In this document: one piece after another, positions 4,600 to 5,970 of the stretch
Layout of the letters: every line of letters begins with the position of its first letter
How positions within the stretch are numbered: position 1 is the stretch's first letter
Virus record (IMG/VR): IMGVR_UViG_2684622552_000007
Location: 1 to 35,384 of that record
Reading direction: 5' to 3' (one strand)
DNA from: a virus
Lineage: Duplodnaviria > Heunggongvirae > Uroviricota > Caudoviricetes
Length of the DNA stretch: 35,384 nt
Notes under the pieces: generated by a model
Databases searched by the model: none
What the model saw: the letters and a program-made list of their open reading frames with translations, nothing else
Told to the model about the DNA's origin: nothing
Made by a program: the position numbers and the translations under genes

Positions 4600-4695
4600 A
4601 ACGCCTCCAGTTGTTTCTTTGCTTGTAGTGGTTTACTGAATTTGGCCACCTGAACAGAGGTGATATGCTCACCTCAGAACATTACAGGTGCCTCA

Positions 4696-4998
4696 ATGAA
4701 AAAAAGAAATTTCAGCGCAGAGTTTAAACGCGAATCCGCTCAACTGGTCCTTGATCAGAACTACACCGTTGCAGCTGCGGCCAGTGCCATGGACGTGGGG
4801 CTTTCTACCATGACACGATGGGTAAAGCAGTTACGGGATGAACGACAGGGCAAAATACCTAAAGCCTCCCCTATAACCCCGGAACAGATTGAAATACGAG
4901 AGCTGAAGAAAAAGCTACAACGCATTGAAATGGAAAACGACATATTAAAAAAGGCTACCGCGCTCTTGATGTCAGACTCCCTGAACAGTTCTCGTTAA
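4696..4998 (+). CDS. IS911 OrfA (HTH/leucine-zipper transposase component)
   Basis: [18 protein letters not shown]...[27 protein letters not shown] matches IS911 OrfA (recall); A-AAA-AAG frameshift motif near the 3' end. Confidence 0.85.
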
Positions 4999-5024
4999 TC
5001 GGGAAACTCAGAGCGCAGTATCCT

Positions 5025-5864
5025 GTGGTCACACTCTGCCAAGTGTTCGGGGTTCATCGCAGCAGCTACAAATACTGGGTGGAAAGCCCCGAAAAGCCAG
5101 ACGGCAAACGGGCTGTATTACGTAGTCAGGTTCTGGAGCTGCATAACATTAGCCATGGCTCTGCTGGCGCGAGAAGTATCGCCATTATGGCAACCCTGAG
5201 AGGCTTCAGAATGGGACGCTGGCTTGCCGGCAGGCTCATGAAAGAACTGGGACTGGTGAGTTGTCAGCAACCCACCCACCGGTATAAACGTGGTGGTCAT
5301 GAACACGTCGCTATCCCGAATCGCCTTGAGCGACAGTTCGCAGTGACAGAGCCTAATCAGGTGTGGTGCGGCGATGTGACGTATATCTGGACAGGCAAGC
5401 GCTGGGCTTACCTTGCTGTTGTTCTCGATCTGTTCGCAAGGAAACCGGTGGGCTGGGCAATGTCATTCTCACCGGACAGCAGGCTGACCATCAAAGCGCT
5501 GGAAATGGCATGGGAAGCTCGCGGTAAACCAGCCGGATTGATGTTCCACAGCGACCAGGGTAGCCACTATACAAGCAGGCAGTTCCGGCAGTTACTGTGG
5601 CGTTGCCGGATCAGTCAGAGTATGAGCCGACGTGGAAACTGTTGGGATAACAGCCCGATGGAACGCTTCTTCAGAAGTCTTAAAAACGAGTGGGTGCCAG
5701 TAACAGGTTATGTAAGCTTTAGCGAAGCTGCTCATGCGATCACAGACTATATCGTTGGGTATTACAGCTCGCTAAGACCGCATGACTATAACGGTGGGTT
5801 ATCCCCAAACGAATCGGAAAACCGATACTGGAAAAACTCTAAAGCGGTGGCCAGTTTTAGTTGA
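5025..5864 (+). CDS. IS911 OrfB (DDE catalytic domain), expressed as OrfAB by -1 programmed frameshift
   Basis: Frame is -1 relative to orfA; translation ...[34 protein letters not shown]...[10 protein letters not shown]... matches IS911 OrfB (recall). The N-terminus in the track is a GTG/TTG artefact. Confidence 0.85.
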
Positions 5865-5970
5865 CCACTACAGCTGCTCTGATTAATTGTTTAACTCGGC
5901 GTGATAATTCAGATTCGTGCGGGTAGAAAGCGGACATGACGCCGCTACCCGCGAGCTGAAAATGCATCAT
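5857..5970 (-). pseudogene. cIII-like gene (FtsH-inhibitor family) with 3' end disrupted by the IS911 insertion
   Basis: From ATG 5970 (AAGGAG SD upstream): MMHFQLAGSGVMSAFYPHESELSRRVKQLIRAA then VVVN* read from IS sequence. Joining the flanks across the IS restores a 44-aa ORF ending ...AAKKQLEALCAMK. Similarity to lambda CIII is by recall. Confidence 0.5.

Follow-up and report, generated by a model that had tools for sequence, protein, structure and literature searches.

Insertion sequences (ISs) of the IS3 family, which includes IS911, are about 1.2-1.55 kb long and end in imperfect inverted repeats that read 5'-TG...CA-3', and their transposases contain a DDE catalytic domain in which ~60 residues separate the two aspartates, ~35 residues separate the second aspartate from the glutamate, and a lysine or arginine stands seven residues after the glutamate. 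Insertion of IS911 makes a 3-bp target duplication. In phage lambda, residues 14-37 of the CIII protein form a 24-residue amphipathic helix that is both essential and sufficient for inhibition of FtsH (Kobiler et al. 2007, PMC1838920); the substitutions S17A, R24A, L26A, R27A and R32A all confer a cIII- phenotype, that of R32A being dominant negative, and CIII activity seems to require oligomerisation via a coiled-coil helix (PMC1838920). The CIII protein of HK022 is the type of a second CIII class (PMC1838920), and CIII of the HK022 type is also found in HK97, H-19B and mEp235. The window analysed here, a stretch of 35,384 nucleotides from a virus of the Caudoviricetes (IMG/VR virus record IMGVR_UViG_2684622552_000007, positions 1 to 35,384), contains a complete IS3-family IS, a relative of IS911, that has very probably transposed into codon 33/34 of an HK022-type cIII gene in a P22-like prophage. 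The parts of the interrupted locus are as follows.

4621-4623, strand not applicable: left GCT copy of the 3-bp target-site duplication (empty sites carry one GCT fewer)
4624..5872, plus strand: IS3-family insertion sequence, complete, 1,249 bp (100% identity over positions 1-1249 to copies elsewhere)
4624..4650, plus strand: left inverted repeat (IRL), starting TG
5846..5872, plus strand: right inverted repeat (IRR), ending CA; on the minus strand it supplies the final four codons and the stop of truncated cIII
5873-5875, strand not applicable: right GCT copy of the 3-bp target-site duplication
5857..5970, minus strand: interrupted cIII (cIII'), 33 native residues plus VVVN, 37 amino acids (aa), stop inside the IRR (Pfam PF08134 cIII, E 5.6e-27)
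4584..4623, minus strand: 3' end of cIII, displaced by the IS: codons 34-44 and the stop, with a 16-nucleotide (nt) overlap with the start of kil

A lone 3-bp match on the two sides of an element is weak evidence of duplication (it has a chance of 1/64, and the target itself contains GCTGCT), so the occupied site was compared with empty sites. The preliminary description of this locus, made from the sequence alone, had let its proposal of an insertion depend on the existence of an uninterrupted homologue of the joined flanks, and such homologues exist: matches to the joined flanks were found in 332 phage records and 2,283 E. coli genomes, many of these matches being unbroken across the junction. 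Three empty sites were inspected closely (phage mEp235, E. coli 266917_2 and E. coli 5283), and all three read ...GTTTCTTTGCTGCTCTGATTAATTG..., which is the window minus the IS and minus one GCT. The empty site is TTTGCTGCTCTG and the occupied site is TTTGCT-[IS]-GCTGCTCTG, so that, apart from the IS, the occupied site is longer by exactly 3 bp; because GCT occurs three times when the site is occupied and twice when it is empty, the duplication is real, as had been proposed in the preliminary description. A chance match or a mere GCTGCT tandem, the other ways of accounting for the repeated GCT, are ruled out by the same count. Thus the pre-insertion sequence is recoverable, and the boundaries of the element and of the duplication are exact. 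In other species, four related copies are likewise flanked by perfect 3-bp duplications (ttt, cca, gta and aac). The event was very probably a simple insertion that duplicated a 3-bp GCT target, as expected of the copy-out/paste-in pathway of IS911-type elements.

The terminal inverted repeats are 27-nt arms (4624-4650 and 5846-5872) that are imperfect, 81% complementary and bounded by TG...CA, reading TGTAGTGG...CCACTACA, with TGTAGTGGTTTACTGAATTTGGCCACC as the left arm; both had been noticed from the letters of the window. The ends are fixed independently by at least eight public read-assembly contigs that contain a 1,249-bp copy with 100% identity, in which identity stops at the same two bases. 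The element at 4624-5872 therefore has the length and the termini of an IS3-family member, and self-BLAST found no second copy or fragment of it in the window. The range 4621-5970 that had been assigned to the element in the preliminary description takes in, besides the IS, the left duplication and the interrupted gene; by itself the IS occupies 4624-5872.

The interrupted open reading frame (ORF) reads MMHFQLAGSGVMSAFYPHESELSRRVKQLIRAA followed by VVVN, ending ...RAAVVVN, and still matches PF08134 with 93.7 bits against a cutoff of 25. Removal of the IS and one GCT restores a gene for a protein of 44 aa, MMHFQLAGSGVMSAFYPHESELSRRVKQLIRAAKKQLEALCAMK, ending KKQLEALCAMK, that is an exact match to CIII of HK022 (RPC3_BPHK0) and of mEp235. 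The earlier claims that joining the flanks restores a 44-aa CIII-like ORF, and that the insertion replaces its last 11 codons with four IS-derived codons, are thus both borne out, and the restored product can be named: compared to HK022 CIII, residues 34-44 (KKQLEALCAMK) have been swapped for VVVN from the right end of the IS. The restored gene overlaps kil by 16 nt, exactly as cIII and kil do in the annotation of mEp235. A protein cluster look-up found the exact 37-aa protein as WP_046081843.1, named 'regulatory protein', from Escherichia fergusonii on one contig, and a separate search for contigs encoding the 37-aa protein returned no record. The window most likely derives from that contig or from a sibling of it.

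The IS contains two overlapping frames in the arrangement that the preliminary description had recognized, with a -1 frameshift at an A6G motif in the phase of orfA, from which a 389-aa OrfAB reads open.

4696-4998, plus strand: orfA, 100 aa, regulator with a helix-turn-helix (HTH) and a leucine zipper (Pfam PF01527 HTH_Tnp_1, E 6.5e-13)
4947-4953, plus strand: slippery heptamer A AAA AAG (A6G), candidate programmed -1 frameshift site (A.AAA.AAG in the phase of orfA)
4952-5024, plus strand: predicted three-way-junction RNA fold directly 3' of the slippery site (minimum free energy -29.5 kcal/mol, z -1.9)
4953..5864, plus strand: orfB frame (-1), DDE catalytic domain; joined to orfA it gives OrfAB of 389 aa (Pfam rve, E 1.9e-31)

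Translation through a -1 shift at A6G yields the 389-aa OrfAB without a stop codon. The predicted fold consists of a long stem around two hairpins; 15-nt repeat arms lie at 4952-4966 and 5010-5024. The orfB frame also matches Pfam rve_2, rve_3 and HTH_21, and its catalytic triad is D117, D177 and E213, which lie 60 and then 36 positions apart, with a lysine at E+7. A DDE domain with this spacing, an N-terminal HTH in OrfA, and overlapping orfA and orfB with A6G are together consistent with an IS3-family transposase. The element is apparently full-length and, judging from its intact frames and the identical copies at two or more loci, apparently functional in transposition. The -1 shift gives an OrfAB of 389 aa in this element and likewise in the IS911 copy of phage Sf6. 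The OrfAB of IS911 has been given as 382 aa, and as 292 aa in one place (PMC2909936). The difference between 389 aa and these figures is a small discrepancy of numbers in the literature and not a property of the element.

The IS annotated as IS911 in Sf6, which like the host phage here is P22-like, interrupts ninG and is the IS911 copy used for comparison. The two elements share a span of 1,249 bp, an orfA that begins 72 nt from the end, the position of the slippery site, an OrfA of 100 aa, a collinear OrfAB of 389 aa and TG...CA ends; they differ at their extreme ends (TGTAGTGGTTTAC here versus TGAAGTGGCACAC in Sf6) and have 86.9% nt identity, spread evenly along the length, with 93% identity of OrfA and 90.7% identity of OrfAB at the aa level. 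The limits customarily applied by ISfinder to elements of the same name are at least 90% nt identity and at least 95% transposase aa identity. Because 86.9% and 90.7% are below these limits, the element is a relative of IS911 that would have a separate name and is not IS911 itself, near-identity to the Sf6 copy being absent; the label 'IS911-like' given to it earlier was therefore right as to relationship and collinear layout, provided that it is not read as IS911. The nearest full-length copies among complete E. coli genomes and plasmids are 95.3-95.6% identical at the nt level, 1,249-1,250 bp long and have identical termini; they are found in Citrobacter freundii, C. portucalensis, Enterobacter, Raoultella, Klebsiella oxytoca, Plesiomonas and one E. 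coli chromosome (EH09-18-41). These plasmid and EH09-18-41 copies are about 60 substitutions away from the present element (OrfAB 95.6%, OrfA 99%) and are annotated in RefSeq merely as 'IS3 family transposase'. Among species representatives, relatives with 93-96% identity are found in Kluyvera, Klebsiella, Raoultella, Pantoea, Pseudenterobacter, Dryocola and Enterobacter, several of them with 3-bp duplications, and the same terminus is found at 25 loci in species representatives of Enterobacterales, including Mixta, Franconibacter, Ewingella, Pantoea, Kluyvera, Klebsiella, Raoultella, Pseudenterobacter and Dryocola. The exact OrfA is encoded on at least 1,000 contigs (Enterobacter hormaechei, Salmonella) and the exact OrfB is listed in 29 assembly-collection blocks, while the exact 1,249-bp isoform was found elsewhere solely in Logan read assemblies, at one other locus. 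Thus the IS is a widespread relative of IS911 in Enterobacterales, for which the label IS911 is inappropriate. At the Logan locus (2600-3848 in an example contig), the identical copies have a gene for an OLD-like ATPase/TOPRIM protein and an ArsR-type regulator on one side and unannotated genes on the other; comparison of the flanks of the Logan contigs with plasmids gave matches just in the arsR/arsD region, at 87-89%. One neighbouring relative, about 88% identical, has been labelled as belonging to the ISEc52 family.

The insertion is probably recent, as suggested by a duplication free of mismatches, other copies with 100% identity, undecayed flanks (CIII and Kil equal to those of HK022), an intact recT and the presence of the truncated protein on one contig. 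The earlier proposal of a simple recent transposition agrees with the exact duplication, the identical copies elsewhere and the undecayed flanks, from which recency is read. Exact searches for the left junction in collections of genome-representative, viral and metagenome contigs gave no match. The arrangement might instead be something other than a fresh transposition, either an old insertion that was inherited or acquired by recombination from an IS-bearing phage, given that lambdoid phages are strongly mosaic, or a misassembly, given that the IS is multicopy in public data and that repeats are open to misassembly. An exact 3-bp duplication at a known empty site is a signature of transposition, however, unlike what misassembly or homologous exchange would leave; the flanks encode CIII and Kil identical to those of HK022, without decay; and the truncated protein is on a single contig with a junction that is absent from three large collections. 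These alternatives are accordingly judged very improbable. Several observations do weigh against the interpretation of the locus as a whole. No duplication flanks the 100% identical copies at the other locus (aga on one side and gtg on the other), so not all copies came from simple insertion, and that locus probably underwent a rearrangement or deletion. The putative frameshift-stimulating fold is only modestly more stable than shuffled sequences (z -1.9, with 9 of 200 shuffles equally stable), and no Rfam family was matched, either by the whole window at the gathering threshold or by 4400-6300 at E<=1, so that neither the frameshift element nor a cIII thermosensor has a curated counterpart. 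The host is most likely Escherichia fergusonii, an assignment that derives from the name of one protein accession. Finally, CIII of the HK022 type is just 32% identical to lambda CIII, which makes the C-terminal residue equivalences used below approximate, and makes loss of CIII function probable, not certain.

In the alignment with lambda CIII, P17 of the present protein pairs with P14 of lambda, and A33, after which the protein is truncated, pairs with W30 of lambda. The complete equivalent of the lambda 14-37 helix is present in the protein of the restored gene and absent from that of the interrupted gene, which has lost the equivalents of lambda residues 31-37 (the final third of that helix), including the counterpart of R32, and has VVVN in their place. 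Because the lost residues are within the segment that is essential in lambda, loss of function is likely, and CIII is probably inactivated or strongly weakened. The contrary prediction, that 33 residues plus VVVN still inhibit FtsH and that the insertion is silent for lysogeny, has in its favour that the truncated protein keeps its conserved N-terminal residues as well as 17 of the 24 positions that align with the essential region of lambda, that its match to the 37-position Pfam cIII model covers positions 1-32 with E 5.6e-27, and that the four extra residues are hydrophobic or polar and could lengthen the helix. It is nevertheless quite unlikely, given that the entire 14-37 segment of lambda CIII is called essential, that single substitutions, R32A in the lost part among them, are enough for a cIII- phenotype, and that activity seems to depend on oligomerisation through the coiled-coil helix (PMC1838920). 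If CIII has been inactivated or weakened, phage released from the lysogen would stabilise CII poorly and would lysogenise less often; the resident prophage would still be maintained as before. The window encodes a candidate for this CII.

8840-9136: CII-like activator (phrog_191, E 1.5e-36)

By analogy to lambda CIII R32A, the truncated helix might even, though this is rather improbable, pair in a dominant-negative manner with the CIII proteins of co-resident lambdoid phages.

The IS is located in the leftward operon, as had been noted, upstream of kil and recT, which follow it on the minus strand with matches to PF06301 and PF03837. The order on the minus strand is a candidate pL, a nutL-like site, an N-like gene, ral, a phrog_3054 gene, cIII', the IS, kil and recT, and the genes of the IS are antisense to the operon.

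7604..7643, minus strand: nutL-like site, with boxA GCTCTTTAACA at 7643-7633 and boxB TCTCAAC-CTAACC-GTTGAGA at 7623-7604 (sequence read directly)
7188..7523, minus strand: N-like antiterminator gene at the head of the operon (phrog_271, E 7.4e-37)
6729-6708, 6205-6188, 6060-6043 and 6022-6003, minus strand: four intrinsic-terminator-like hairpins with T-runs, between N/ral and cIII
4447..4599, minus strand: kil, 50 aa, exact match to HK022 Kil (VKIL_BPHK0) (PF06301, E 1.7e-20)
3146..4057, minus strand: recT recombinase, the next major gene downstream (PF03837, E 3.7e-32)

The boxB-like hairpin upstream of the N-like gene has a perfect 7-bp stem, and boxA and boxB are presumably a nut site, to judge from their resemblance to known nut sites; the N-terminus of the N-like protein, GTAKSRYKARRAELIAERR, is presumably an arginine-rich motif of the phi21 type. 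A scan of 4300-8900 for terminator-like sites found 10, compared to 3.9 expected from shuffles. The occurrence on one strand of an N gene, boxA/boxB, terminators and the cIII-kil-recombination genes suggests a lambdoid pL operon. Downstream of kil are genes for a phrog_3486 protein, RecT and a Mu Gam-like/gp157-type protein (phrog_253). Between kil and the phrog_3486 gene there is also a small acidic ORF of 40 aa, MVSQEMSFTDNWSDEEFIRQMNKMLNQHKEQEKDDDSDSE (4343-4465, minus strand), and mEp235 has at the corresponding position a hypothetical protein similar to HK022p38.

Polarity of the IS on kil, recT and genes beyond them had been raised as a possibility, and it is a possibility that the arrangement of the operon makes weaker. 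Leftward transcripts that reach cIII must already be N-antiterminated: with four terminator-like hairpins ahead of cIII and an N-like gene and nutL-like site ahead of those, the polymerases that arrive at the IS should already be resistant to termination. Complexes with lambda N resist Rho-dependent termination (PMC12360218). On the minus strand within the IS, no terminator-like hairpin was found, and no outward promoter-like site was found at the left end of the IS in the direction of kil; the antisense RNA of the IS, in which C-rich tracts resembling Rho-utilisation sites were sought, has a mild C/G bias (C 27%, G 24%). On the minus strand, 24 nt from the IS, kil retains its own GGAGG Shine-Dalgarno site (4604-4608). 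Lambda N is also said to relieve IS polarity, in work of Adhya, Gottesman and de Crombrugghe dating from 1974. Transcriptional polarity on kil, recT and beyond is thus predicted to be weak and probably largely suppressed. The opposite outcome would be a strongly polar IS at which leftward early transcription ends, with kil, recT and the distal genes (xis and int, beyond the window) silenced and recombination or excision crippled. It would be favoured by the about 1.26 kb of untranslated antisense IS RNA that now separate the cIII' stop (5857) from kil, since untranslated RNA invites Rho-dependent polarity (PMC12360218), and by the loss, through the insertion, of the cIII/kil translational overlap that intact relatives have. 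Set against the N-like antiterminator and boxA/boxB, the hairpins that let just antiterminated polymerases arrive, the hairpin-free minus strand of the IS, the mildness of the C/G bias, the Shine-Dalgarno site of kil and the reported effect of lambda N, strong polarity is unlikely, though it keeps slightly more weight than continued inhibition of FtsH by the truncated protein.

Overall, this is an ordinary, well-understood event, the insertion of an IS3-family element into a non-essential prophage gene. It is rather improbable that the insertion alters prophage behaviour, whether by making a low-lysogeny, near-clear-plaque variant or by uncoupling cIII from kil with damped expression of Kil, Rec, Xis and Int; the second of these, if true, would mark an early stage in the domestication of a P22-like prophage in Escherichia fergusonii. 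For annotation, WP_046081843.1 can be described as an IS-truncated CIII of the HK022 type, and the prophage should be labelled as having an IS-interrupted cIII. The locus provides a naturally occurring allele of HK022-class CIII that is truncated at the C-terminus, together with a natural test of whether N mediates read-through of an IS; neither the allele nor the test bears on an open question, and their general interest is low.

The window covers most of the P22-like prophage, the closest phages of which are Kapi1 (72% of 24 kb at 96.7%) and CUS-3. In the nin region (11567-12549, plus strand), a gene for NinB (PF05772) is followed by an overlapping gene for a phage Dam-type N6-adenine methyltransferase (PF05869, E 1.2e-64). 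A protein with Rha/ORF11CD3 domains (PF09669 and PF10549), resembling an antirepressor, is encoded at 16700-17242 (plus strand) between the lysis region and the terminase genes. The 813-aa tailspike (31624-34065, plus strand) has a P22-type head-binding domain (PF09008, E 8.4e-67), and the remainder of its gene has a low G+C content (37-42%). It is followed by a convergent gene of low G+C content for a GT4 glycosyltransferase (34134-35384, minus strand), which runs off the end of the window. The tailspike/GT4 region may represent a swap of the receptor-binding module together with a surface-polysaccharide moron, or the latter may be a host gene.

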